A stretch of DNA of 64,000 bases from an uncultured bacterium (GCA_964584495.1 CAZPAH010000002.1:17775-81774); one strand, 5' to 3'. Counted from the first letter of the stretch, positions 4,087-64,000 are shown. Notes: generated by a model not told the origin, from the letters alone. Made by a program: numbers and translations.

Positions 4087-4475
4087 ACCCGCATGGAAAT
4101 CTTACTCGATATCGGTCGTGGCGCTCGTTTTCGTCGCCCGAGAGCAAAACCCTGTGAATCATAAGGTTACGGCGATTCCCAGCCGGACGGCCCGCTGGCT
4201 GTTTTCGTCTAACCGCTTGTCGGACGGCATCTTGCCTTACCGAACTCTTCAAAGCCGCCGGCCTTTATAGTTCCGGGCTGCAAGAACCATTCACATTGGG
4301 GGGTAGATTAGGGGAGTCGGTAAAAAAAGCTGGGCTGGAAAAAGGGCACCACGATACGCGATGCCCCACACTCTGCTTCATTCTGTAATGCCGTCCCGGG
4401 GTTATAAGGAGCGGACCGGCCCATACCGGCCGGCCGCTGACCCATAAAAACTGAATCCCTCCCTGCCCCAGCCTA

Positions 4476-4970
4476 TCAACCTTGAATCTTCTTGATCTCC
4501 TTGGAGATCAGCTGGACGTGTCTTTTCTCTTCGCCGATCAGCTTGTCTATCTCCTTCTTTCCCAAATCTTCGCGTGTCCGCGATTTCATCTCGTCGAAAA
4601 AGAGGATCGTATCCTTTTCGAATCTCAGGGCCTCTTCCAGAATTTGTACCGGTCCGCCAGCCTTGGCGGCGACCGCCTCGGCTTCCTTGGCCGTACCGAA
4701 CAATCTCGACTTTACCAGGGCGTCTAGATATAGATACTCCTGGTCATCGGGATCGGAAGCCGTCGGAGATGTCACCGCCGGGGGAAGGGAATCGCGAAGG
4801 CCCTTGAAAACTTCGAGATGCTTCTGCTCTTCCGAGAAGAGCATGTCGAAAATCTTCTTCAGAGCAGGGTCTTTCGTAATCTCAGAAGCCTTCCTGTAGT
4901 AGGCCATGCCGTTAGTCTCTATGTTCATTCCCATTTCGAATACTTCATCGGCATTGAAAGAAATACCCAT
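4476..4970 (-). CDS. rubrerythrin-family ferritin-like diiron protein (no rubredoxin domain)
   Basis: Two ferritin-like halves, each with an E-x-x-H motif (EEQKH, EEKRH) on a four-helix-bundle pattern. Last gene of the perR-led minus-strand cluster. Confidence 0.6.
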   Translation of the reverse strand: MGISFNADEVFEMGMNIETNGMAYYRKASEITKDPALKKIFDMLFSEEQKHLEVFKGLRDSLPPAVTSPTASDPDDQEYLYLDALVKSRLFGTAKEAEAVAAKAGGPVQILEEALRFEKDTILFFDEMKSRTREDLGKKEIDKLIGEEKRHVQLISKEIKKIQG

Positions 4971-5074
4971 TTTTATCCTCCTAAGCTAAAAACACCGGCC
5001 TCCCTGACGAGCCGCGGCGGATGCTGGGATCATGGCCGATCATTCTTCCCGGCGCCCCGACCGGGTGAGATCAC

Positions 5075-5236
5075 TTAATCGAGAGGCTCGAACTCATCCT
5101 TACCGACCCCACAGTCGGGACAAACCCAGTCACCCGGGAGATCCTCGAAAGAGGTGCCGGCCGGCACTCCGTTATCCGGATCCCCGATTGCGGGATCATA
5201 CACGTACCCGCACACGGTGCACTTCCACTTTTTCAT
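5075..5236 (-). CDS. rubredoxin
   Basis: [15 protein letters not shown]...[16 protein letters not shown] carries both CxxCG knuckles and the aromatic core of rubredoxin. Start moved to the internal ATG (MKKWKC), which has an AAGGAGA RBS upstream. About 53 aa. Confidence 0.85.
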
Positions 5237-5272
5237 CGTATTCTCCTTTCCAGGCCCCATTCTTTCGATCGA

Positions 5273-5764
5273 TCAATCCTCTAGAAAAGAGGTCGAATCG
5301 AAATCGAACCAGTACAACCCTCCCGCCAGAGAATTCTTCTCGGCAGTTAAAAGGTTATAATGCCCCATTTCTATCTGTGCAAGCTCCAAAAAGAATTTTT
5401 TCAGCTCGGCGGACACGGTCGCTCCCGCCTGCTTCTTGTAGAATTCATGCGCTTTCAGCTCGGCCTCAATCGCGATATCGAGTGCCTGCATCGCACCGGT
5501 CTCTTCCCGTATCGAGAGGCCCTGAATCTCGGCGAACGATTCGTTCTCGACGCCGGGCGCCGGGACCGTGCCGAACAGCTTCTCGTACCATCTGCCGAGA
5601 CTGTCCCTGTGCCCCTTCTCATCGAGCGAGAGCTGCAGAAACCTTTTTTTCCCTTCCGGATTCTCAATCCTGCCGGCAATTTCCGAATAAAAATTCATCG
5701 CCTTTATTTCGGCGATAATGGCCGTTTCCATAGCTTCCCTGAGATCTTCGGAGGTACCACTCAA
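5273..5764 (-). CDS. ferritin-like / rubrerythrin-family diiron protein
   Basis: 163 aa with two helix pairs carrying E-x-x-H motifs (DEKGH, IEMGH), the typical diiron-centre ligands of rubrerythrin or erythrin. No rubredoxin domain. Confidence 0.6.
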   Translation of the reverse strand: MSGTSEDLREAMETAIIAEIKAMNFYSEIAGRIENPEGKKRFLQLSLDEKGHRDSLGRWYEKLFGTVPAPGVENESFAEIQGLSIREETGAMQALDIAIEAELKAHEFYKKQAGATVSAELKKFFLELAQIEMGHYNLLTAEKNSLAGGLYWFDFDSTSFLED

Positions 5765-6829: not shown

Positions 6830-7447
6830 TTATGGCCTGCTCTTGTTCTCCCGGAACTGGGCATAGGTGATCGGCTCGCCCCCGCTAAGCAATCCGCCGC
6901 AAAGTATATCGCCGATGAAGATACTGTGCGTTCCCACGTCCGCCGTCAGGCTTGGAACTATTGAAGCTTCTAGGTAACCCACCGAATCCTCCAGCAGGGG
7001 ACACCCGTTCTCGCCCTTCTTGACCCGAACTCCCTTCAGCTTATCGAATTCCCTTCCCGACCTGTATCCGAAGCGCCTTACCATCTTATGGTCGTTTACG
7101 CCCAGGATGGAGGCGGCGAACAGACCGCTCTTCTCGATATACTCGTGGGTAAGATTCTTCTTGTTGATGGCGATCGCAATGCGGGGAGGCTCGCTGGTTA
7201 CCTGGAAGAGGGTATTGCATATCTGCCCGTTCGATTTCTCCCCGTCGATCGACGTGACGACATAGAGACCGTAAACGATCTTGAGGCACACGTCGATTAT
7301 CGCCCGTATCTTGTCCGTAGGTATCGCGGCTTCGATCGACTGGGAGGAAAACGATCCCATCTTGCCGCAGGCGGGACACTTATCGGGCGGGAAAGAATCG
7401 ACTACCACATGACCACAGGAAGAGCACACCCAGTTTTGTGCAACCAT
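6830..7447 (-). CDS. flavin reductase-like (FMN-binding) protein with N-terminal rubredoxin-like zinc ribbon
   Basis: N-terminus WVCSSCGHVV...DKCPACG (CxxC-x15-CxxC). The remainder matches the flavin-reductase-like beta-barrel pattern (GLYVVTSIDGEKSNGQICNTLFQVTSEPPRIAIAINKKNLTHEYIEKSGLFAASIL). Confidence 0.65.
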   Translation of the reverse strand: MVAQNWVCSSCGHVVVDSFPPDKCPACGKMGSFSSQSIEAAIPTDKIRAIIDVCLKIVYGLYVVTSIDGEKSNGQICNTLFQVTSEPPRIAIAINKKNLTHEYIEKSGLFAASILGVNDHKMVRRFGYRSGREFDKLKGVRVKKGENGCPLLEDSVGYLEASIVPSLTADVGTHSIFIGDILCGGLLSGGEPITYAQFRENKSRP

Positions 7448-7457
7448 ACGATTCTCC

Positions 7458-7874
7458 TTACAGGCATTCCCGGCAGATTCCCCTGAAGACGGCGCTGCAA
7501 GATTCCACCCGGTGTCCGTCGATCTCGGCCGTGTCGTAGCATTTTTTGCTTTCGCTATCGACCGGGATATCGAAGATTCTGTTGCACTTGCCGCATATGA
7601 AATGATTGTGCATCTCCGTGAATGGATCGTAGTTCAGATAACCCTTGGAAACGCAGATCGCCTGGATCTCCCCGATCTTCTCGAGCATTTCCAGGGTATT
7701 GTAGACGGTGGAGAAGGAGAGGCCCGGATTTTTACGCTTCAGCTCATTGTAGATCGAGACCGCCGCAGGGTGATTGCGGTTCCCGATCATATACTTTATG
7801 ACGGCAAGCCTCTGCGGCGTAAGCTTGAACCCCTTCTTTCTAAGAAGGGCGATCGTTTCATCTAGAGCGTGCAA
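7458..7874 (-). CDS. perR: Fur-family transcriptional regulator, peroxide-responsive (PerR-like)
   Basis: 138 aa. N-terminal winged helix (LTPQRLAVIKYM), HPAAVSIY, and C-terminal HNHFICGKCNR...CxxC structural-zinc motif of the Fur family. Assigned PerR rather than Fur/Zur only because it leads a rubrerythrin/rubredoxin operon. Confidence 0.7.
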   Translation of the reverse strand: MHALDETIALLRKKGFKLTPQRLAVIKYMIGNRNHPAAVSIYNELKRKNPGLSFSTVYNTLEMLEKIGEIQAICVSKGYLNYDPFTEMHNHFICGKCNRIFDIPVDSESKKCYDTAEIDGHRVESCSAVFRGICRECL

Positions 7875-8886: not shown

Positions 8887-10422
8887 ATGAATGAAGAGAA
8901 GTTCCAGGCCGGCGCGAAAAACCGTTCGGCGACCCTAAGAGCGCTTGACAGGATAGAGAGGATTGGAAACAGGCTTCCTCACCCCGCCACCCTCTTCGCA
9001 ATCTTCGCCGCAACGGTGGCGGTATTGTCGTATATCGTCCACCGCGCCGGGATCACGGCGGTTCATCCCGGTACCGGAAAGGTTATCGAGGCGGTAAACA
9101 TGCTGAATCCGGACGGGCTCCGTTTCATCTATTCCAGGACGACCGACAACTTCGTCCACTTTCCTCCCCTCGGAATAGTGCTGGTGGCGATGATAGGGAT
9201 AGGTGTGGCGGAGGGGTCCGGCCTGATATCCGCCCTCCTGAGACATCTCGTGACGGCGGCGCCGCGCCGACTCGTAACGGCGGCCGTCGTCACTGCAGGC
9301 ATCCTTTCCCATCTCGCCTCCAGCGTCGGCTACGTCGTTCTCATACCCTTGGGAGCGATGATATTCATGGCTTTCAAGCGCCACCCGATAGCGGGGATCG
9401 CCGCCGCGTTCTGCGGAGTCTCGGGAGGATTCGGGGCCAATTTCCTTATCGGATCGATAGACCCTATCCTTGCCGGGCTCACCGAATCGGCCGCGACGCT
9501 TATCGTTCCGGGGATCCATATCAATCCGGCCGTCAACTTCTACTTCATGGTCGCATCCGCCTGCCTCCTGGTGTTCCTGGGGACTTGGGTCACCGAGAAG
9601 ATCGTGGAACCGAGGCTGGGAACCTACGAGGGGAAGCACGAGGAATTCGAGTCTGTATCGCCGAAAGAGAAAAAGGGACTCGCCTGGGCCGGAATAACCT
9701 GCGCCGTCGTGATCGCCCTTCTTCTTCTGATGGTGATCCCCTCCAACGGCGTCCTCCGTGACCCGGAGACAGGCTCGATCCTGCGTTCTCCCTTCATGAG
9801 CGGCAGGATAAGCGCGATCATGATATTCTTTCTCCTCCCGGGAATCGCCTACGGTATAGCGGTCGGCACGATCCGCAGCGACAAGGATGTCGTAAAACAG
9901 ATGACCTCCTCGATGAAGGGACTCGCCGGTTATATAGTCCTGGTTTTCTTCGCCGGACAGTTCGTCTATTATTTCAAGCACAGCAACATCGGGGTGCTGC
10001 TCGCCATAAGGGGGGCCGATCTGCTGAAAACCCTGGGGTTCACCGGTATATGGCTTCTCATCTCTTACGTCATACTCTCGGCTTTCATCAACCTCTTCAT
10101 GGGTAGCGCATCGGCGAAATGGGCGATCATGGCCCCCGTCTTCGTTCCGATGTTCATGCTCCTCGGCTATCATCCGGGGATCACGCAGGCGGCCTTCAGG
10201 ATCGGCGACTCGATAACGAACATTATCACCCCTATGATGAGCTATTTCGCGTTGATAGTCGCATTCGCCCAGAAATACGACGAGCGCTACGGTATCGGCA
10301 CGATCACGGCGACGATGCTGCCGTACTCGATCATCTTCGGTTTCTTCTGGATAGCGCTTCTCGCCGTTTGGATGCTGCTCGGACTACCTACAGGGCCCGA
10401 TGCGCCTATTCATCTCCCGTAA
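8887..10422 (+). CDS. AbgT-family transporter (p-aminobenzoyl-glutamate/antimetabolite transporter family)
   Basis: 511-aa polytopic membrane protein. Length, N-terminal amphipathic start and hydrophobicity pattern match the AbgT/YdaH family. RBS GAAGGAGAG lies before the ATG. Confidence 0.7.
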   Translation: MNEEKFQAGAKNRSATLRALDRIERIGNRLPHPATLFAIFAATVAVLSYIVHRAGITAVHPGTGKVIEAVNMLNPDGLRFIYSRTTDNFVHFPPLGIVLVAMIGIGVAEGSGLISALLRHLVTAAPRRLVTAAVVTAGILSHLASSVGYVVLIPLGAMIFMAFKRHPIAGIAAAFCGVSGGFGANFLIGSIDPILAGLTESAATLIVPGIHINPAVNFYFMVASACLLVFLGTWVTEKIVEPRLGTYEGKHEEFESVSPKEKKGLAWAGITCAVVIALLLLMVIPSNGVLRDPETGSILRSPFMSGRISAIMIFFLLPGIAYGIAVGTIRSDKDVVKQMTSSMKGLAGYIVLVFFAGQFVYYFKHSNIGVLLAIRGADLLKTLGFTGIWLLISYVILSAFINLFMGSASAKWAIMAPVFVPMFMLLGYHPGITQAAFRIGDSITNIITPMMSYFALIVAFAQKYDERYGIGTITATMLPYSIIFGFFWIALLAVWMLLGLPTGPDAPIHLP

Positions 10423-10466
10423 AAGCCCGCGGGGGTCACCGGCTGCTATCAGTTAAAGATTCAGTG

Positions 10467-11345
10467 AGGGCGGTCGATAACTGTTGTGTGAAAGAAAAGC
10501 TGCATAAGTACAAGAAGATCGAGAGCGGATTTATCACCGACCTGAAAACTTTGTCGGCCGCCGAGAGGGCCGTCGGGTGCAAAAAGCACGGGAACTCAGT
10601 TTCCAGCAGGGTATTCGTTGAAACCAGCGCCGGCTGCCCACCGGGTTCCCATGTGCGATTCCATCTCGATCTTCCCGGCGGGGGACAATACACGCTGTCC
10701 GGAGTCATCGAATGGGGCAACGACGGCTCCCTCCCCGGAAAACCGGTCGGTTTGGGAATACACGTGCTCGAGATGGAAGAAGGCCGGGAAAAGGGCCCCG
10801 CCGACGGAGACGATCCGGCGGCCGGCCGGGAGGCACCGCCGGTTGCGGAGGAGCGAAGACACGGCAGAAGCAGTCTTCCGCCCTTGGAGGAGATCGCGGA
10901 GCTGCTGCACTCCCTTCTCGATATGAAGATCGCGGTCGAACCGGGTCAGCCGGTGCAGCTCGACCAGGAGAAGCCGACGGCGGTCGCCACGTTTGTTAAC
11001 GAAGCCGGAAGGGTCAAGACCGTCCTGCTTTGTGATCTTGAAGGCATCATATATCTGGGAGCCGGGATGGCGGTGATGCCGGCCGACCTCGCGCACGAAT
11101 TCATCTCTTCGAAGAATATCCCGGACAATATCGCGGAGATTTTCCAGGAAGTCATCAACGAATCGGCTAACCTCTTTAACAAGAGCGGAAAACTTCACCT
11201 CTCGCCTGGAGTCCTTAAGATCACACCCGACACCCTGCCCGACAAGGTCGAGAGATTGATATCCAAGCCGGGGTCTCGCCTCGATATTAAGATAGAGGTC
11301 CCAGGTTACGGGACGGGTATGATCTCCCTGATCGAGTCATCGTAG
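10467..11345 (+). CDS. hypothetical protein, possible PilZ-like N-domain plus CheX/CheC-like C-domain
   Basis: The supplied ORF (from 10119) overlaps abgT. The first plausible starts after the abgT stop are in-frame GTG codons at about 10467 or 10488. The region HVRFHLDLPGGGQYTLSGVIEWG...GLGIHVLEM resembles a PilZ beta-barrel, and the C-terminus (NIAEIFQEVINESANLFNKSG) resembles CheX-like phosphatase folds. Both calls are weak. Confidence 0.3.
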   Translation, partial: RAVDNCCVKEKLHKYKKIESGFITDLKTLSAAERAVGCKKHGNSVSSRVFVETSAGCPPGSHVRFHLDLPGGGQYTLSGVIEWGNDGSLPGKPVGLGIHVLEMEEGREKGPADGDDPAAGREAPPVAEERRHGRSSLPPLEEIAELLHSLLDMKIAVEPGQPVQLDQEKPTAVATFVNEAGRVKTVLLCDLEGIIYLGAGMAVMPADLAHEFISSKNIPDNIAEIFQEVINESANLFNKSGKLHLSPGVLKITPDTLPDKVERLISKPGSRLDIKIEVPGYGTGMISLIESS

Positions 11346-11488
11346 AGATCTCCCTGGATAAAGGCGGTGCCCGGCGGTATTCGGATCCGATCGATCCGCA
11401 CCGCGGTATAAAACAATATACTTTTATAGCGTCAGCCCGTAAACTTTCCAGGCGCGTTGCAGGTCTTATACGCGGGAAAAGGTTCGTT

Positions 11489-12559
11489 ATGCGGATAGCG
11501 TTTCTAGGTGACGGTTCTCTAAATCATGTCCGGAGGTGGGCCGGGTATTTCGACGAAAAGGGGCACGAGATACTGCTCGTCTCCTTCGAGGAGATGCCGG
11601 AATGCCCTTTCCCCACCGTTCGGCTGCCCAGGCGGTTGCCGACCAGGCTGGCAGGGTATCTCCTCTCCCTTCCAAAGCTTAAAAAAACAATATCCCGCTT
11701 TCGTCCCGATCTGCTCAACGCCCTTTACATCGCCGGCTACGGATTCATCGGCTCGCTGGCGGGGGTGAGACCGCTCGTTGTCTCGGCCCTCGGTTCCGAT
11801 CTGCTGGTGGATTACCCGTCGAACCCGATCCACCGCCGGCAGATAGGGTACGCGCTTAAAAGGGCCGATCTTGTCACTACCGACGCGGAGATCCTATCCA
11901 GGGCGGCGCTCTCCGCGGGGGCCGGCGAAGACAGGTTGCTCGAAGCCTTTTTCGGAATAGACGATTCCCTGTTTTTCCCCCCATCCGGTGGGGAGTTTTT
12001 TCCCGGCGCATCGCCCGCCAGGATAGTCAGCACCAGGAACCTCTACCCCGTTTACAACATAGATCTTCTTGTCGACGCGGCCCCCATTATTCTGGAAAAG
12101 ATCGACGCCAGGTTCGTCATCTGCGGCGACGGCCCCCTGAAGAAGAAGATCGAGGAAAAGGTCACCCGCATGGGACTCGCCCCGGTCTTCTGCTTTCCGG
12201 GAAAACAGAGTCCGGAAGGGATCGCTTCGATCCTCAGGGAGGGATCGGTCTACGTATCCGTTTCACGATCCGATTCGACCTCCGTTTCCCTTCTTGAGGC
12301 TATGGCCTGCGGAGTGCCTCCCGTGGTGACCGATATCCCCGCGAACAGGGAGTGGATAAAAGACGGGGAGAACGGGTTTCTGGTTCCCCCCGATTCCCCG
12401 CGGGCCCTGGCCGACGCCGTCGTGAAGACGGCGCTGGACCGGGAAACCTCCGGCGGTTTCTCACGGATAAATATCGAGCTTGTGAGGAAAAAGGGACTAT
12501 GGAAAGAGAACATGGAGCGGGTGGAGCGGGCGTTTCAGGATCTCGTCGACCGGCGGTGA
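11489..12559 (+). CDS. glycosyltransferase family 1 (GT4, retaining)
   Basis: GT-B fold. C-terminal domain has the E-x7-E-type motif region (EAMACGVPPVVTDIPANREWIKDGENGFLV) diagnostic of GT4/RfaG-like enzymes. Confidence 0.75.
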   Translation: MRIAFLGDGSLNHVRRWAGYFDEKGHEILLVSFEEMPECPFPTVRLPRRLPTRLAGYLLSLPKLKKTISRFRPDLLNALYIAGYGFIGSLAGVRPLVVSALGSDLLVDYPSNPIHRRQIGYALKRADLVTTDAEILSRAALSAGAGEDRLLEAFFGIDDSLFFPPSGGEFFPGASPARIVSTRNLYPVYNIDLLVDAAPIILEKIDARFVICGDGPLKKKIEEKVTRMGLAPVFCFPGKQSPEGIASILREGSVYVSVSRSDSTSVSLLEAMACGVPPVVTDIPANREWIKDGENGFLVPPDSPRALADAVVKTALDRETSGGFSRINIELVRKKGLWKENMERVERAFQDLVDRR

Positions 12560-56985: not shown

Positions 56986-59481
56986 CTAGTCCTTCTTGAA
57001 CAGATCCTTGAGCTTGTCGGCCGCTCCCTTCTTCAGTCCGTCGATCAGTTTCTCGCCCGCCCTTGCCTTCGCCCTGCTCTGGTCGAGCCTTATCTTCGGC
57101 GACTTCGCCGTACCGCCGATATCGAAATCGAATACCAGGTTCCCCCCGTCGTCGCGGAAGAGATCCAGCAGGTCACGGTAGCCGTCAAGGTCTTTCATCC
57201 CCTTCTGGGCCGCGGGGGAAATCTTCAGGTTCGCCTTGTAAGCGAGTGTTCCGTCCAGACCGAAAGATCCAGAGATCGACCAATCGCCCGTCGACGACTT
57301 CAGCAGCCAGTCTTCGGTGCTGAATCTTCCCCCGCTTATCCTGTAGCTTCCCGTCCACTGATTGAATTTCACCTTCTTGAGACTCTCCAGCTTCATCCCC
57401 GAGGATTCGGCGAGGGGGGAGATGAATTCGGAAAGGTCGACCACTCCCCCGGAGGAAGACGCGTTGCCGGAGATATCCATCGACATAAGCGGGTCTATAC
57501 CGGGTCCCGTATCGACATCGCCGACTACCTTGAAGGAGAAGAGGCCGCTCACCGACGATCCCATCTTGTGAAGCGGGCGCAGCGCCTGCGAGGCCTCGAT
57601 ATTCTCGAACACTATATTGATCCGCGTGTTTATCCTCGCCACGTTCCTCAGGTTCGAATCGATCTTACCCCTACCCTTTCCGCCCGCAAAATCAATACCC
57701 ACCGGATAAGCGTTCAACATGCCGTCCCTGACGGCACCCTTGGCATTCAGCGAGGTGAAAACTGCCTTCCGGGTGATCACCGAATCGACCGCGACGGAGA
57801 AACCCGTCCGTTTAAGGAATGGGACGATCCCCGCGAGGGCCGGGGAGCTTTCCTTGGAAGCCGCTCCGGTTCCCTTCGCGCCTGACGGCGGCGCCTTGCC
57901 CTTTTCCCCTTCAGCTCCCTTTAATTCCTGGAACGGCCGCGCATCGAATGATCTCGCGCTAAGGTCGATATTTATATCGGGAACATTCCGTATCGAATCG
58001 ATGACCTTGGCGAGATCGACGCTCCGATCGCCGCCCCCGGCCGTGGCGGACAGTTCGGCGAGGCAGGGGAAAAGCCCTTTCATCGAGCCGGTCACCCGCC
58101 ACCGGTCGTGCCCCGCCAGGATCCCCGCCTCGATCTTGCTCACATCGCCCCCCGAGATCACGGCCGTCCCGTCGACCGAAAAGATCTTAAGAGGCCCGCC
58201 GGCGGTCTGGATACTGATACCGGTCGCCGTGAGTTTTCCCCCAAGCTCGAGATTTTTCCAGGCACCGGCGATAACGGCGGGATCCCTCTTGCCTTCGCCG
58301 GAGGGAAACAGGCCGGACAGAACGGGCAATGCCGCCTTCCCCTTGATCTCACCCTTGATTTTACCGGCAACCGTCGTCCCCTCGATTTTGAGGGACCTAG
58401 TCAGCGCCGCCACGTCCATATCGGCGCCGGCGTTGAAACCGAGACGTCCCGGTTTACGGTCGCCGCCGATCGGAAGATCGAACGAGACCCGGGCGGATAC
58501 TCCCTCGGAGGCGAGATCGATCCTCTCGCTCCTTATCCCGCCGGTCGAAAACTCGACCGCGCCTCCCGCCTTGACGGGAATCCGCATTTTCCCGGCCGTG
58601 GAGGAGACCTCGTTCAGCGCTAGGCTACCGTTCACCTTTATCCGCGAGATATTTTTCAGGGACCCTCCCGCCTCCACCCTAAAATCGATCGTCCCGCCGG
58701 TCGGATCGAACGGCACCGCATCGGCCAGTTTCTTGCCTTTTAGCTGCGGGAGAAAACGTTCCGGCTGGAGGGAAATCAACTTTCGATAAAGCTTCACGAC
58801 GTCGTTCCCGCTGCTTTCAACCGTTGCCGAGAAGACCCCCTCTCCACTCAAGCCTTCCAGCTTTCCCGCGACGGCCGCCTCGGCCAGTCCATCGACTTCC
58901 ACGGTGCAATCGGTGAGAGATAGATCCTCGAAACGGGGTCCGGCATCGAGGATGCCACTCAACGAAACCCTGCCCAACGCCAGTTTCTCCCCGGTAGAGG
59001 CCTTTTCCAGCTCGACCTCGCCCGCATCGAGCTTCACAACGGCGTGATAACCGTCGCCCGACGGTTCCATCGACATCCAAGCCTTTAAATCCCTGACCTG
59101 TGCGTTGATCCCCCGGCTAGGATCGATCACAACGACGACCCCGCCCTCGACCTCGACATTCTTGATGTCGGGGTGTTTCCTGATAAGGCTCCATAGCGAT
59201 ACGTTGATAACCAGCTTCCGGGAGGCGAAATCGATCCCGACCCCCGCGGGAAGCTTCTTCTCGAACGAAAGATCCCTTGCATCCACTCCGAATCCGAACG
59301 GAAATCGGACCCCGATATCGCCGATCTCGATTTTCGCGTCGACCGCCTTCTCGATCCTGGGGACTATCATAACCATGAGCCTCTCTCGCGTGAGGAACAA
59401 ACGGAGGACCACGCTCACGGCCAGAATAATGCCGGCGGCGACGCACAACGCTACAATCAGCTTCCTGCCCCTGCTTTTCAT
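56986..59481 (-). CDS. AsmA-family protein (large periplasm-spanning, TamB/AsmA-like)
   Basis: 831 aa. Single N-terminal TM anchor (LIVALCVAAGIILAVSVVL), then a long beta-rich Gly/Ser-rich body. C-terminal region with the AsmA-like pattern (WTGSYRISGGRFSTEDWLLKSSTGDWSISGSFGLDGTLAYKANLKIS). Confidence 0.65.
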   Translation of the reverse strand: MKSRGRKLIVALCVAAGIILAVSVVLRLFLTRERLMVMIVPRIEKAVDAKIEIGDIGVRFPFGFGVDARDLSFEKKLPAGVGIDFASRKLVINVSLWSLIRKHPDIKNVEVEGGVVVVIDPSRGINAQVRDLKAWMSMEPSGDGYHAVVKLDAGEVELEKASTGEKLALGRVSLSGILDAGPRFEDLSLTDCTVEVDGLAEAAVAGKLEGLSGEGVFSATVESSGNDVVKLYRKLISLQPERFLPQLKGKKLADAVPFDPTGGTIDFRVEAGGSLKNISRIKVNGSLALNEVSSTAGKMRIPVKAGGAVEFSTGGIRSERIDLASEGVSARVSFDLPIGGDRKPGRLGFNAGADMDVAALTRSLKIEGTTVAGKIKGEIKGKAALPVLSGLFPSGEGKRDPAVIAGAWKNLELGGKLTATGISIQTAGGPLKIFSVDGTAVISGGDVSKIEAGILAGHDRWRVTGSMKGLFPCLAELSATAGGGDRSVDLAKVIDSIRNVPDINIDLSARSFDARPFQELKGAEGEKGKAPPSGAKGTGAASKESSPALAGIVPFLKRTGFSVAVDSVITRKAVFTSLNAKGAVRDGMLNAYPVGIDFAGGKGRGKIDSNLRNVARINTRINIVFENIEASQALRPLHKMGSSVSGLFSFKVVGDVDTGPGIDPLMSMDISGNASSSGGVVDLSEFISPLAESSGMKLESLKKVKFNQWTGSYRISGGRFSTEDWLLKSSTGDWSISGSFGLDGTLAYKANLKISPAAQKGMKDLDGYRDLLDLFRDDGGNLVFDFDIGGTAKSPKIRLDQSRAKARAGEKLIDGLKKGAADKLKDLFKKD

Positions 59482-59599: not shown

Positions 59600-59628
59600 T
59601 TGACAATAGCGAAAATAGTGCTTATCTT
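59600..59628 (+). promoter_or_regulatory. sigma-70-like promoter TTGACA-N17-TATCTT
   Basis: Perfect -35 hexamer and a 17-nt spacer before TATCTT, about 20 nt upstream of the ATG at 59650. Leader is short, so this is tentative. Confidence 0.3.
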
Positions 59629-59649
59629 TAAGTTAAAGCGATCAAGGGG

Positions 59650-60630
59650 GTGCATATCATGAATAAACCTAACGGTTCGTGCATAAGGGGCCGCCGGTCG
59701 GCGGTTGCACTTGTCCTCGGCGCATCCCTGCTTCTCGTCGCGGCGGGCTGCGGAGAGAATGAGGATACAGGCATCACTTCAACGGGGAACGGTCCGGCGG
59801 GGTCCCTCGTAAGCACGACGGGGTGCAAGACACACTCGGCGATTTTGTCTTTTTACGCAGGCGAGACGCCCCAGGAGTGTTTCCAATACGAGTACTCCAC
59901 CCGGCGTCTGAAAATCGATCATATCAACCTCTGCCTCAACTGCTGCCCGGGAACGATCGAGGGTACCGTTACGATAGAGGGTGACACGATAAGGATCAAA
60001 GGATCTGAGGAAGAAGGATCCGCGCCATGCAGATGCCTCTGTCTCTATGACATCGAATACGAGATATCCGATCTGGATCCGGGAACCTGGACGATCCTCT
60101 TCGAGGGCGATTATGTCGAAAGCCCCAACGAGATTCTAGTTGCCACGGTCGACCTCGCCGAAGGAGCCGGCGGAGAACGCTGCGTTCCAAGGGAGGGATA
60201 CCCATGGGACTTGCAGGGAGAAGAGCCTTACGGCACCCTGACCGGCCACGGCACCTGCAAGGAGGATCTGCTATCACCCGAGGGCGGAGATTCGCCGGTC
60301 AACGAGGCATGCGCTTTCTACGGCTACGAAGGGAACATTCTTCTCATAGAGAGGACGAACCTGCGGCTCAATTGCTGCCAGGACATGATCTACGCATCGA
60401 TAGTCTTCCAGGGGCATGATATAACGATCACCGAGAGCGAGGATCCCCGGGGCGGACTCTGCGACTGCGTCTGCTTCTACGATATGTACTACACCCTGAG
60501 GAATGTCGAGCCGGGCGTCTACACGATCAGGTTCGTCGAGCCATACCTGGGGCAGAACGAGCCGCCTCTCGAGATGACGGTCGACCTTACCACGATCCCT
60601 TCCGGGGAACACTGCGTTCTAAGGTACTGA
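59650..60630 (+). CDS. lipoprotein composed of a tandem duplicated 7-Cys domain (uncharacterised)
   Basis: Signal peptide with lipobox LVAAGCG. Two about 110-aa repeats share GxCK...Y.Y...L.I...NL.LNCC...G..I.I..SE....G.C.C.C.YD..Y......PG.YTI.F.E.Y. The repeats begin TGCKTHSAILSF... and HGTCKEDLLSPE.... Confidence 0.55.
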   Translation: MHIMNKPNGSCIRGRRSAVALVLGASLLLVAAGCGENEDTGITSTGNGPAGSLVSTTGCKTHSAILSFYAGETPQECFQYEYSTRRLKIDHINLCLNCCPGTIEGTVTIEGDTIRIKGSEEEGSAPCRCLCLYDIEYEISDLDPGTWTILFEGDYVESPNEILVATVDLAEGAGGERCVPREGYPWDLQGEEPYGTLTGHGTCKEDLLSPEGGDSPVNEACAFYGYEGNILLIERTNLRLNCCQDMIYASIVFQGHDITITESEDPRGGLCDCVCFYDMYYTLRNVEPGVYTIRFVEPYLGQNEPPLEMTVDLTTIPSGEHCVLRY

Positions 60631-60646: not shown

Positions 60647-61522
60647 TCAAAACGTCGCTGCGCTGCTCTCGTTGCTCTTTATCACCCCTCGTTCGACCGA
60701 AAACAGGGTATTGGCTGCGGCTATGCGCCCCATGATCTCCAGGGAAAGATTCAGATAATCTTCCATCCCGTAGCTCTTCGGGCGGTAGCTGAATATGTCT
60801 TTCCCGTAACGCGGCGACTCTGCCAGGGCGATATTTTCCCTTATCATCGTGTCGAGAAGGAGCGGGCCGTAACGCTCCCTCAAGGCCTGCACAACGGTGC
60901 GGCTCAGCACCTTCCTCCCGTCGTACCGCGTTGCTATAAGGCCGCCGATAACGAGATCCTCGTTCAGCTCGACCATTATCGATTCTATCTTTGTTATCAG
61001 ATCCTCCAGGCTCCTTATGGCCAGGTATTCCGTCTGCACCGGAATGAAGACCTTCCTGGCGGCCGCAAGAGCGTTTATCGATACGAGCCCGAGGCTGGGG
61101 GGGCAATCGAATAGTATGTAATCGAAATCGTCCCTTACCCTGGAAATCGCGTTTTTAAGCAGGAATTCCCTGTCGCCCGTGTTGGCGAAGGCGGTCTCCG
61201 CCTCGGCGAATTCCAGTGTCGACGGTATCATCGAAATGGACAGCTGCGACTCGCTGCCGTTGATGCAGAGGCGCGCCCTCAACGGTTTCGCAATGATCGC
61301 ATCAGCCGGATGGATCGTGCCGCGCATCGCATCGTAGATCGTTTTTCCGACCTCGTTCCTCTCTATACCGAGAAAACTGGTAAGGTGCCCCTGTGGATCA
61401 AGATCGACTATGAGGACTTTCTTGCCCATGATAGCAAGCCCCGCCCCTACATTGACCACTGAGGTGGTCTTTCCAACCCCGCCTTTTTGATTAAGGAACG
61501 CCGCCGTCTCAGATCGGTGCAT
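60647..61522 (-). CDS. ParA/MinD-family P-loop ATPase (orphan; no parB adjacent)
   Basis: Deviant Walker A NQKGGVGKTTSVVNVGAGLA, Walker A-prime/B regions, ParA-like length, plus a roughly 40-aa C-terminal extension. Confidence 0.75.
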   Translation of the reverse strand: MHRSETAAFLNQKGGVGKTTSVVNVGAGLAIMGKKVLIVDLDPQGHLTSFLGIERNEVGKTIYDAMRGTIHPADAIIAKPLRARLCINGSESQLSISMIPSTLEFAEAETAFANTGDREFLLKNAISRVRDDFDYILFDCPPSLGLVSINALAAARKVFIPVQTEYLAIRSLEDLITKIESIMVELNEDLVIGGLIATRYDGRKVLSRTVVQALRERYGPLLLDTMIRENIALAESPRYGKDIFSYRPKSYGMEDYLNLSLEIMGRIAAANTLFSVERGVIKSNESSAATF

Positions 61523-61541
61523 CTTCCCTCCTTATTTGTAG

Positions 61542-61557
61542 TTGACTCGAGAGTCAA
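61542..61557. promoter_or_regulatory. 16-bp palindrome TTGACTC-GA-GAGTCAA about 20 nt upstream of the parA start
   Basis: Perfect 7-bp inverted arms with a 2-bp spacer, between the parA RBS (GGAGGG) and the upstream intergenic region. Candidate operator or partition-related site. Confidence 0.3.
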
Positions 61558-61646
61558 AGAATAACCGCCATCAGGACACTAAAGCGCGCATTCTCTCTCG
61601 ATCGGTCGATTTTTTCAACCATTTTCTTGCCTTTCCCCCCTCCAAT

Positions 61647-61688
61647 ATCAAAAAATCCCTCCGGGCGGCGCGTGGGTGTCGCCGCCCG
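61647..61688. terminator. strong GC-rich stem-loop flanked by A5 and T5 tracts (bidirectional intrinsic-terminator-like)
   Basis: AAAAAT-CCTCCGGGCGGC-gcgtgggtgtc-GCCGCCCGGAGG-ATTTTT: 12-bp perfect stem (extendable to 13) with an A-tract 5' and a T-tract 3'. Lies in the divergent intergenic region between parA (-) and the tricorn gene (+). Confidence 0.5.
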
Positions 61689-61799
61689 GAGGATTTTTAC
61701 AAAATTCTTGAAACTTATAAGCTCGTAATCAGTATTAATAGATACCGGTACGATTGTGTCTCCGAATTTAACGCCCTTTTCCCCGAAAGGAGCCTTCAT

Positions 61800-64000
61800 A
61801 TGGGCAAAAGAGTACTTCTTCTTTTTGTTCTTGCGGTTCTCGCGGCGCCGGGGATGGCATCCGCCACCGAGGAATGCCGCCTGATGCGCTATCCCGACAT
61901 ATACGGGAATTCGATAGTATTTTCCTACGGTGGAGACCTATGGACGGTTCCGGCGACCGGTGGAACCGCATCTATTTTGACATCTCATGCCGGCGGGGAG
62001 GTATTCGCCAAGTTCTCCCCCGATGGAAAGACCCTCGCTTTCTCGGCTTTATACGACGGCAACTTGGATGTTTTCACGATCCCCGCCGGAGGCGGCGTTC
62101 CCAAGAGGGTGACCTTCCATCCCAAGGCGGACTTCGTTCTCGACTGGCATCCCGATGGAAAGAAGATCCTCTATAGATCGACCAAGGACGCAAAGACGAA
62201 TCCCGGGCCCCGCTACAGGAGACTCTATACGGTCGAGGCGGACGGAGGCTACCCGGAACCTCTCCCTCTGTTCGAGGGGGAGCTCACCTCATATTCGCCC
62301 GACGGCAAGAAGATAGCTTACAACAGAATGTCACGCGAGTTCAGGACATGGAAGCGTTACAGGGGCGGCATGGCCCAGGATATATGGCTCTACGATCTCG
62401 ATAAAAATGAAGTCGAGAAGCTCACCACGTATGAGGGAACCGACGCATTCCCCATGTGGTACGGGGATAAGATCTACTTTATATCCGACCGGGAGAGGAC
62501 GATGAACATCTTCTGCATCGATCTCTCATCGCGTAAAATCCGTAAAATCACGAATCACAAGGAGTACGACGTCAAGTGGCCGAGCCTCGGTGACGGATCG
62601 ATAGTCTACGAGAACGGCGGGTATCTGTACGTCCTCGATCTCGCCTCGGAAAAGACGAAGAAGCTCGATGTAATCATCCCCAGCGAGCTCAACAACAGAC
62701 GTCCGCGGTACAGGGATGTCGCCAACTGGATCAGGTATTTCGATATTTCTGCCACGGGGAAACGAGCCGCCTTCGGAGCGCGGGGCGATGTTTTCACCGT
62801 GCCCGCGGAAAAAGGAGAGGTACGCAACCTCACCCAAACTCCAGGAATTCGCGAACGCAGCCCCGCATTTTCCCCGGACGGCAAGTGGGTTGCCTACCTC
62901 TCCGACAGATCGGGCGAGTACGAGCTCTACATGAAAAAACCGGACGGTACAGGTGAAGAGGTGAAGGTGACATCCGGTATGGGCGGATACCCGTTCGCCA
63001 TATCCTGGTCGCCGGACAGCAAGAAGATCATCTACCACGACCAGAGCTACTCGCTCTATTATGTCGATATCGACAAGAAGCAGATCAAAAAGATCGACAG
63101 CGAGGACTGGGGAGACATAACCGATTACTCCTGGTCTCCAGACAGCAGGTGGATCGCGTACGCAAAGAACGGCGACAACCGGTACGGGTCCATCTATCTC
63201 TATTCGCTCGACGAAGGGGAATCATACAAGGTAACGAGCGATCTCTTCAACGATTACGACCCCGTCTTCGATCCGGAAAGCAAGTATCTATATTTCATCT
63301 CCGACAGGACCGTGAATATGAGGTTCACCAACCTGGAGCTCGGTTGGGATTTCCCCGCCCCCGCGACCATATGCGTCGCCACACTTCTCGCCGAGACACC
63401 TTCTCCGCTGGCGCCCGAAAGCGACGAGATCGAGGTGAAGGCGGACGATACCAAGGATGATAAGGGAGACGCCGACAAGAAGGATGAGGAGAAGAAGGAC
63501 GAGACCGGCGACAAGGATAAGAAAGAGGATGAAAAAGAGAAAGAGGCGATGAAGATAGATATCGACGGGTTCGAGGGAAGGATAGTCTCCCTGCCCGTCG
63601 GTCCGGGCAACTATGTCGGCCTCTCCGCAGCCGAGGGAAAGGTTCTCTATTTTTCCATCCCGGAGGGGATGATTAGCAACAGCCCCCCTGATCTCTCGCA
63701 GTTCTCGCTGAATTATTTCGACATGAAGAAGAGGGAATCTAAAAAGATTATCGGCGGCATCAACGGTTACACCCTTTCCAGCAACGGAAGCAAGATCCTC
63801 TACGGAGCGATGGGCACCTACGGAATCATCGATGTCGCCCCCGGAAAGAACGTGGGTGACGGCAGGCTGAATGTCGACCTTGAGGTCAAGTGGGACCCTG
63901 AGGCCGAGTGGAGACAGATATTCTACGAGGCCTGGCGCATGGAGCGCGATTTCTTCTATGTCGGCAATATGCACGGGGTCGACTGGAATCAAATGAAAAG
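61800..64000 (+). CDS. tricorn protease homolog (S41 family), N-terminal beta-propeller region; partial, runs off the window end
   Basis: Not in the ORF track because no stop occurs before the window end. Reading from the ATG at about 61800 gives signal peptide MGKRVLLLFVLAVLAAPGMASA, then RYPDIYGNSIVFSYGGDLWTVP...WKRYRGGMAQDIWLYDL...GDKIYFISDRERTMNIFCID..., the characteristic tricorn propeller-1 pattern, continuing open to 64000. Only antisense ORFs appear in this stretch. Confidence 0.7.
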   Translation, partial: MGKRVLLLFVLAVLAAPGMASATEECRLMRYPDIYGNSIVFSYGGDLWTVPATGGTASILTSHAGGEVFAKFSPDGKTLAFSALYDGNLDVFTIPAGGGVPKRVTFHPKADFVLDWHPDGKKILYRSTKDAKTNPGPRYRRLYTVEADGGYPEPLPLFEGELTSYSPDGKKIAYNRMSREFRTWKRYRGGMAQDIWLYDLDKNEVEKLTTYEGTDAFPMWYGDKIYFISDRERTMNIFCIDLSSRKIRKITNHKEYDVKWPSLGDGSIVYENGGYLYVLDLASEKTKKLDVIIPSELNNRRPRYRDVANWIRYFDISATGKRAAFGARGDVFTVPAEKGEVRNLTQTPGIRERSPAFSPDGKWVAYLSDRSGEYELYMKKPDGTGEEVKVTSGMGGYPFAISWSPDSKKIIYHDQSYSLYYVDIDKKQIKKIDSEDWGDITDYSWSPDSRWIAYAKNGDNRYGSIYLYSLDEGESYKVTSDLFNDYDPVFDPESKYLYFISDRTVNMRFTNLELGWDFPAPATICVATLLAETPSPLAPESDEIEVKADDTKDDKGDADKKDEEKKDETGDKDKKEDEKEKEAMKIDIDGFEGRIVSLPVGPGNYVGLSAAEGKVLYFSIPEGMISNSPPDLSQFSLNYFDMKKRESKKIIGGINGYTLSSNGSKILYGAMGTYGIIDVAPGKNVGDGRLNVDLEVKWDPEAEWRQIFYEAWRMERDFFYVGNMHGVDWNQMK

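Follow-up and report, generated by a model that had tools for sequence, protein, structure and literature searches.

Surface lipoproteins of the SusE/SusF type in Bacteroidota combine a lipid anchor with tandem beta-sandwich binding domains. The protein described here resembles them in its lipobox, in an acidic motif after the lipid-bearing cysteine, in its tandem non-catalytic all-beta modules and in belonging to the FCB superphylum. It differs in that neither sequence nor Foldseek comparison revealed likeness to SusE or SusF, the gene lies outside a SusC/SusD locus, and its module, which carries eight conserved cysteines (8-Cys domain), would contain four disulfides. A second comparison is with the dockerin-borne non-catalytic cargo of cellulosome-like systems, as the same domain is the sole cargo behind a dockerin in many family members. 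Yet, the protein at this locus is lipid-anchored and has no dockerin, the domain is not a Pfam CBM or X-module, and the hosts are FCB bacteria, not Firmicutes. Cohesin modules (PF00963) consist of ~140 amino acids folded into nine strands. The 8-Cys domain shares this size, the all-beta composition, the number of strands and the tandem occurrence on anchored proteins, but cohesins lack the 8-Cys pattern and no cohesin was matched in Pfam or by Foldseek. Finally, inhibitors of the Kazal and Bowman-Birk types resemble the domain in a disulfide-pinned variable loop and a multi-headed tandem arrangement, although the 8-Cys domain is 3-4 times larger and gave no sequence or fold match to them. The potempins, lipoprotein inhibitors of Tannerella, share with our protein the lipid anchor, being located in the outer membrane of an FCB bacterium.

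The gene was studied in a stretch of 64,000 nucleotides, referred to as the window. An open reading frame on the + strand extends from 59650 to 60630 and would encode 326 aa if opened by GTG 59650; from ATG 59659 to the stop at 60630 it encodes 323 aa. The ATG was taken as the start because it is preceded by AAGGGGG at a spacing of 8 nt and because the resulting product is 100% identical to database entry P0001. Beside P0001, 51 further homologues were retrieved down to E = 1e-15. The features of the gene and its N-terminal region are as follows.

59600-59628, + strand: promoter-like TTGACA-17-TATCTT in the 168-bp divergent spacer, 10/12 matches in a consensus scan; a pattern match only, to a consensus that may not be the one used by the host phylum
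59644-59650, + strand: Shine-Dalgarno-like AAGGGGG, 8 nt upstream of ATG 59659, read off the sequence
59659-60630, + strand: coding sequence of the Cys-rich lipoprotein, 323 aa, from the list of reading frames and the identity to P0001
59659-59751, + strand: signal peptide with lipobox LVAAG/C, the predicted lipidated cysteine being codon 31 (59749-59751)
59752-59790, + strand: acidic tether GENEDTGITSTGN after the lipid-bearing cysteine, resembling a lipoprotein export signal

The N-terminus reads MNKPNGSCIRGRRSAVALVLGASLLLVAAG followed by the lipobox cysteine, i.e. a charged n-region, a hydrophobic core and a lipobox. All elements of the bacterial lipoprotein sequence criterion (n-region, hydrophobic region and lipobox within ~35 residues) were found, as RGRR, AVALVLGASLLLVAAG and C31, and residues 10-29 were helical in the AF2 model of the window protein. 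The lipobox cysteine was invariant in 50/50 aligned two-repeat homologues. The mature protein is strongly acidic with a pI of 4.19 (~4.2) and 49 D+E vs 16 K+R. Thus, the signal peptide and the lipobox bear out the original prediction of a lipoprotein, and the gene is best explained as encoding an exported protein that is lipidated at Cys31 (ATG numbering).

The mature part consists of two copies of the 8-Cys domain.

59791-60207, + strand: repeat 1, 8-Cys beta domain, aa 45-183, type A (NCCPG), delimited by HMM boundaries, self-alignment and AF2 strands
60223-60627, + strand: repeat 2, 8-Cys beta domain, aa 189-323, type B (NCCQDMIY), delimited by HMM boundaries

Repeat 2 is without the terminal YPW. 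The tandem duplication that had been noticed in the sequence was confirmed by a local alignment score of 206, compared with 31 ± 5.4 (maximum 59) in 300 shuffles (z ~32), at 33% identity between the repeats. Likewise, the motifs NCC, C-x-C-x-C-x-Y-D and PG-x-[WY]-T-I-x-F, which had been proposed as common to both copies, were found in each. The dimensions had to be corrected, though: with HMM boundaries of 45-183 and 189-323 the repeats comprise ~135-139 aa, not about 110, and they hold eight conserved cysteines instead of seven. In GTG numbering and in the order repeat 1/repeat 2 these are C59/203, C77/221, C98-99/242-243, C127-129-131/271-273-275 and C178/322. Repeat 1 has an additional, non-conserved cysteine, C95 (GTG numbering; 59932-59934), within NLCLNCC. 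The corresponding profile position 49 is a cysteine in just 1.6% of family copies; this extra residue makes the cysteine count of the mature protein odd and, therefore, one free thiol is predicted. Compared with homologues, repeat 2 of the window protein had 44-50% identity to second repeats vs 31-37% to first repeats, its own partner included, and the types NCCPG and NCCQDMIY were each kept across orthologues. Both observations characterize the repeats as specialized copies and not as recent duplicates, and by this sequence comparison the duplication is ancient.

The original prediction knew of no matching domain. This held in all libraries that were searched. In Pfam the top match of the window protein had E = 0.22 and 12 bits vs a cut-off of 26, and 60 repeats scanned singly yielded nothing better than E = 0.057; no CBM family was among the Pfam matches of the window protein or of these repeats. 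NCBIfam gave no match to the window protein, and neither a sequence search of the PDB nor a profile search of it with 60 sequences produced a match. AF2 predicted a single domain (repeat 2, with the repeat alignment as input) to be all-beta with nine strands at a pLDDT of 92 and a pTM of 0.86; the values for the full-length model were 87.7 and 0.63, respectively. Foldseek, run with the single-domain model against PDB and BFVD and with the full-length model against PDB, returned no match at E<=0.001; TM values obtained with the single-domain model were at most 0.4. GFP-like barrels were the top matches with TM 0.1-0.36 and were judged to be noise. Some repeats resembled CarboxypepD_reg and Y_Y_Y domains (weak Pfam hits in 3-4/60 repeats, E 0.06-0.1), yet the likeness was restricted to a local hairpin, L-x-P-G-x-Y-T-I, and membership in a CarboxypepD_reg, Y_Y_Y or Ig-like family was rejected with an hhalign probability of 1.4% over 16 columns only. 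A cystine-knot or knottin, in which six cysteines occupy a core of ~30-50 aa with a threaded ring, is improbable from the cysteine spacing, as here eight cysteines are spread across ~120 residues of a nine-strand domain. Literature searches by motif, phyla and dockerin fusions found no description of an 8-Cys domain. Taken together, a single repeat had no confident match to a known domain by Foldseek or profile comparison, and the 8-Cys domain matches nothing in the family and structure libraries or in the literature searches made.

The arrangement of the cysteines was analyzed by their joint loss in 375 full-length domain copies aligned to the family profile. All eight were retained in 341/375 copies. 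Where cysteines were missing they had disappeared in defined pairs. Profile positions 30 and 132 were co-lost in 21 copies, position 30 never alone (Fisher p = 3e-28); positions 53 and 81 were co-lost in 4/4 cases (p = 1e-9); and positions 52 and 83 were co-lost once (p = 0.005). For positions 12 and 85 no loss occurred in 375 copies. Mean-field DCA of 305 copies recovered 30-132 and 50/51-86/87, the latter connecting the NCC turn to the CLCLYD strand, while the remainder was noise. Such losses, in which certain pairs vanish independently and the remaining six cysteines stay, are the behavior of structural disulfides, not of a shared metal site, and indicate that each domain has four of them. 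In profile numbering, C30-C132 and C53-C81 are well-supported pairs from co-loss alone; we infer C52-C83 from the single co-loss and C12-C85 by elimination. Transferred to the window protein in GTG numbering, repeat 1 would contain C77-C178, C99-C127, C98-C129 and C59-C131, and repeat 2 C221-C322, C243-C271, C242-C273 and C203-C275. The family profile further showed a conserved polar set of H45, N47, N51, E72, E74, D88 and R135, which could constitute a structural network or an active, metal-binding or otherwise functional site.

A profile search of 1.84 billion cluster representatives demonstrated the extent of the family: 2955 were found at E<=1e-3, 1387 at E<=1e-10 and 508 at E<=1e-30. All members with source names were labelled "hypothetical protein" and came from metagenome-assembled genomes of Krumholzibacteriota, Latescibacterota, the "FCB group", UBP1 and Bacteroidota (Bacteroidales, Tenuifilaceae). 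The 195 proteins analyzed for architecture contained 1-5 domain copies and were of two main types. In the first a lipobox is followed by 1-3 copies; a lipobox was present in at least 100 of the 139 members with a short N-terminus. In the second a signal peptide and a type I dockerin precede 1-4 copies; Dockerin_1 was detected in 24/56 members with a long N-terminus (best E 9e-14). The 8-Cys domain was the only cargo behind signal peptide and dockerin in P0051 and P0052 (237-241 aa) and likewise in many other members. Rarer fusion partners were CarboxypepD_reg (seven domains), TSP_3, Kazal, ASH/Ig-like, Y_Y_Y, META and CopC. All partners found are extracytoplasmic, and no Pfam catalytic domain was fused to the 8-Cys domain in the members examined. 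In multi-domain members it was nearly always located at the extreme C-terminus. The exception is a subfamily of ~437 aa with a further Cys-rich domain of ~107 aa that lacks a name. Overall, the data are best explained if the modules form a large extracytoplasmic family that is common among uncultured bacteria of the FCB group and is displayed on either a lipid anchor or a dockerin.

Several variants were seen within the family. The C-terminal ~107-aa domain (…YIGTPYCSG..DCRYIG.GSKPCGGPW…) occurs in L005 at 9010-9347, in L002 at about 10950-11278 and in P0012-P0043. Without Pfam annotation, it is missing from the window protein and present in most of the ~437-aa members. P0113, P0114, P0147 and P0121 carry short repeats of ~100 aa that retain just a core of HxNAxxNCC and CxCxC. 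In P0113 five such repeats with five cysteines each are combined with five isolated cysteines in an acidic N-terminal region, a layout that hints at inter-segment disulfides. Locus L010 has three single-domain lipoprotein paralogues within 3.3 kb (4295-4825, 4888-5412 and 7001-7525), two of them in tandem, and one of the three is without the last conserved cysteine.

Variability within the domain was concentrated in one segment, which in the window protein corresponds to the following positions.

59827-59877, + strand: repeat 1, variable loop bounded by conserved cysteines 1 and 2, from family entropy and length
60259-60309, + strand: repeat 2, variable loop bounded by conserved cysteines 1 and 2, pLDDT <50 at model residues 18-22

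This C12-C30 loop was the most variable segment of the family with a mean entropy of 3.33 bits and a length of 11-29 aa; the core strands b3, b6 and b8 had 1.6-1.9 bits. It was also the sole low-confidence part of the single-domain model.

The earlier proposal of a surface lipoprotein stood as far as the lipobox carries it, while the surface location is plausible from the acidic motif and the dockerin fusions. In the family an S or G follows the lipid-bearing cysteine at +2, and an acidic residue (D or E) occupies +3 in 62% of members and +4 in 62% as well. The corresponding residues of the window protein are C-G-E-N-E-D, compared with a family consensus of C-[SG]-[DE]-[DE], and do not match the export signal canonically. 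In Bacteroidota a polar residue at +2 with two or more acidic ones at about +3 to +5, e.g. SDDDD or SDDFE, constitutes a lipoprotein export signal that suffices to bring a periplasmic lipoprotein to the cell surface (PMC5080379). This signal has been defined experimentally in Bacteroidota only, not in Krumholzibacteriota or Latescibacterota. As the acidic motif agrees with the dockerin-borne forms and the extracellular partner domains, surface exposure is the likeliest location and, by extension to these phyla, the window lipoprotein is probably surface-exposed.

The reading we favor, by exclusion and from the architecture, is that of a non-catalytic, surface-displayed recognition or binding module with a hypervariable loop bracketed by disulfides. 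It follows from the lack of a catalytic partner, the display on lipid or dockerin, the position at the C-terminal tip and the specialized tandem copies. Our preference is tentative and stays a little short of an even chance; no ligand, binding site or structural relative of the module was found. The mature protein would then consist of two anciently diverged all-beta copies of ~138 aa, each held by four disulfides. The hypervariable C12-C30 loop, pinned by disulfides at both ends, would set the binding specificity, and the tandem copies would provide two different binding heads or extra avidity.

The neighborhood of the gene was examined together with eleven further loci (L001-L011). In the window the gene is flanked as follows.

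56986-59481, - strand: AsmA/YhdP-like gene, 831 aa, divergent, weak Pfam YhdP match
60647-61522, - strand: parA, convergent, stop codons 16 nt apart, Pfam AAA_31/CbiA/ParA
61554-61799, - strand: 81-aa reading frame upstream of parA (the two spanning 60647-61799), no Pfam hit
61800-64000, + strand, frame of 61542: N-terminal ~730 aa of a Tricorn-type protease, PD40 repeats and Tricorn_C1

The Tricorn reading frame starts near 61.8 kb and runs beyond the end of the window with no stop inside. A block of genes for PseudoU synthase, M29, M48, LemA, He_PIG, the AsmA-like protein and the Cys-lipoprotein was syntenic in the window, L002, L004 and L005. A Tricorn gene followed downstream of the lipoprotein gene in the window, L001, L004 and L005, and the Tricorn of the window was 63-66% identical to those of the latter three. 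The locus was subject to insertions, of a methyltransferase gene together with a TPR-CHAT gene in L004 and of an ABC-transporter cluster (~5 kb) in L001. Only in the window genome do parA and the 81-aa reading frame sit between the lipoprotein and Tricorn genes. The convergent, orphan parA of the original prediction was indeed found, with no parB adjoining it; together with the 81-aa reading frame it looks like a two-gene insertion. The region of the lipoprotein gene and the parA insertion showed no compositional anomaly. As tblastn with ParA gave no match in L001-L011, the syntenic loci of related genomes lack the gene, which is uninformative as a neighbor.

In L003 and L006-L011 the neighbors of the family gene were unrelated. 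The twelve loci therefore argue against a conserved operon: the AsmA-like and Tricorn neighbors belong to a lineage-wide synteny block, and the lipoprotein gene stands alone. Positional orthologues of the Cys-lipoprotein were 34-42% identical vs 44-83% for M29, M48, LemA and He_PIG, and the domain composition shifted at the same locus, with an extra C-terminal domain in L002 and L005. Low identity and changing composition fit a fast-evolving exposed protein. The AsmA/YhdP-like gene (56986-59481, - strand) had 32-39% identity to its positional orthologues, so that both envelope genes are fast-evolving.

Some further associations were limited to single loci. In L004 the orthologous lipoprotein gene ends in a 4-nt overlap with a TPR-CHAT (caspase-like) gene of 964 aa at 8996-11890, which suggests co-transcription of the two in that genome only. 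In L011 the gene for a BNR-repeat protein with a C-terminal dockerin (9133-11130) follows that of a single-domain family lipoprotein, 1.6 kb further downstream; no other dockerin protein was seen next to a lipid-anchored member. The genes carA/carB lie within 0.3-2.5 kb of family members in the unrelated genomes of L001 (1438-5729) and L009 (7841-12212), probably by coincidence.

If the variable loop were a reactive loop, the protein might serve as a surface-anchored, double-headed inhibitor that blocks a secreted or periplasmic protease and protects the envelope. Such a function, proposed by analogy to the potempins, would agree with a hypervariable loop pinned by conserved disulfide cysteines, with the conservation of both repeat types across orthologues and with the fusion of one family member to a Kazal inhibitor domain. 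Candidate targets would be at hand in the Tricorn encoded downstream in the window, L001, L004 and L005 and in the TPR-CHAT protein of L004, whose gene shares 4 nt with the end of the lipoprotein gene. Yet, the Tricorn adjacency falls within the long lineage-wide synteny block, is disrupted by the insertions of the window (parA) and of L001 (ABC-transporter genes, ~5 kb) and is missing from L003 and L006-L011, and proteases are common throughout these genomes. Moreover, neither sequence nor Foldseek comparison gave likeness to solved inhibitors. Hence we consider an inhibitor unlikely.

A more far-reaching possibility, to which we assign a still smaller chance, is that the 8-Cys module is a new fold and the functional end of an FCB-specific display system. 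It would then be either the missing receptor of the non-cellulosomal dockerins of these phyla, the lipoprotein acting as a scaffold for anchoring, or a multi-headed protease inhibitor of a new class at the cell surface.

As a separate reading, a cohesin-like domain that docks the dockerins abundant in these phyla would turn the lipoprotein into a surface anchoring scaffold with two receptor modules. Its size of ~140 aa and its nine strands match those of cohesin modules, its tandem arrangement on a membrane anchor is reminiscent of anchoring scaffoldins, and dockerins and the domain are found together within phyla and within proteins, the BNR-plus-dockerin protein 1.6 kb from a family member in L011 being a further instance. 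On the other hand, Foldseek returned 620 PDB matches, all of them short of E<=0.001, the 50 best included no cohesin, and Pfam gave no match to PF00963. Cohesin homology was likewise rejected when hhalign, run against a cohesin-like segment of a family member, returned a probability of 0.1%. The six-frame translation of the 64-kb window contained no dockerin. Resting on analogy only, a cohesin-like function appears very unlikely.

We judge equally improbable that the surface lipoprotein carries a metal-binding or redox-active center made up of the NCC and CxCxC cysteines, as the original prediction had put forward. Eight (near-)invariant cysteines per domain, including a vicinal CC and a CxCxC, would suit such a center. 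So would the short variants, e.g. P0113, that keep five core cysteines, an odd number. In addition, many of the host organisms are presumably anaerobes, in which periplasmic disulfides may or may not form and extracytoplasmic thiols may stay reduced. The family data point in the opposite direction. Across 375 copies the cysteines were lost in fixed pairs and were not conserved as one set, 30+132 and 53+81 having been lost independently. A loss that is strictly pairwise with the other six cysteines kept, together with an even conserved count, argues against a cysteine-ligated center. Furthermore, no metal-cluster family was matched in Pfam or NCBIfam, and AF2 arrived at a confident fold without a cofactor.

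Least probable of all is a role, by analogy to the pairs YnbE with YdbH and TamL with TamB, as the outer-membrane lipoprotein partner of the divergent AsmA/YhdP-like lipid-transport protein, because, although this neighbor is retained in the window, L002, L004 and L005 and both genes evolve faster than those around them, related genomes share synteny throughout the block from PseudoU synthase to AsmA, which renders the adjacency uninformative, the pairing is absent in L001, L003 and L006-L011, and dockerin-fused, multi-domain extracellular forms are ill-suited to a periplasm-facing role.

Few if any members of the Krumholzibacteriota, Latescibacterota and related FCB lineages have been cultured, and the surface biology of these groups is almost wholly inferred from annotation. 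The ~3000 cluster-level representatives outside the searched libraries are therefore a sizeable blind spot concerning the interactions of FCB bacteria with polymers, prey and each other. Without a function the 8-Cys domain stays one more well-delimited domain of unknown function. Yet, its definition would provide a family of the Pfam type and possibly a new fold, and the domain would be a handle on the cargo of non-cellulosomal dockerins in Gram-negative bacteria.
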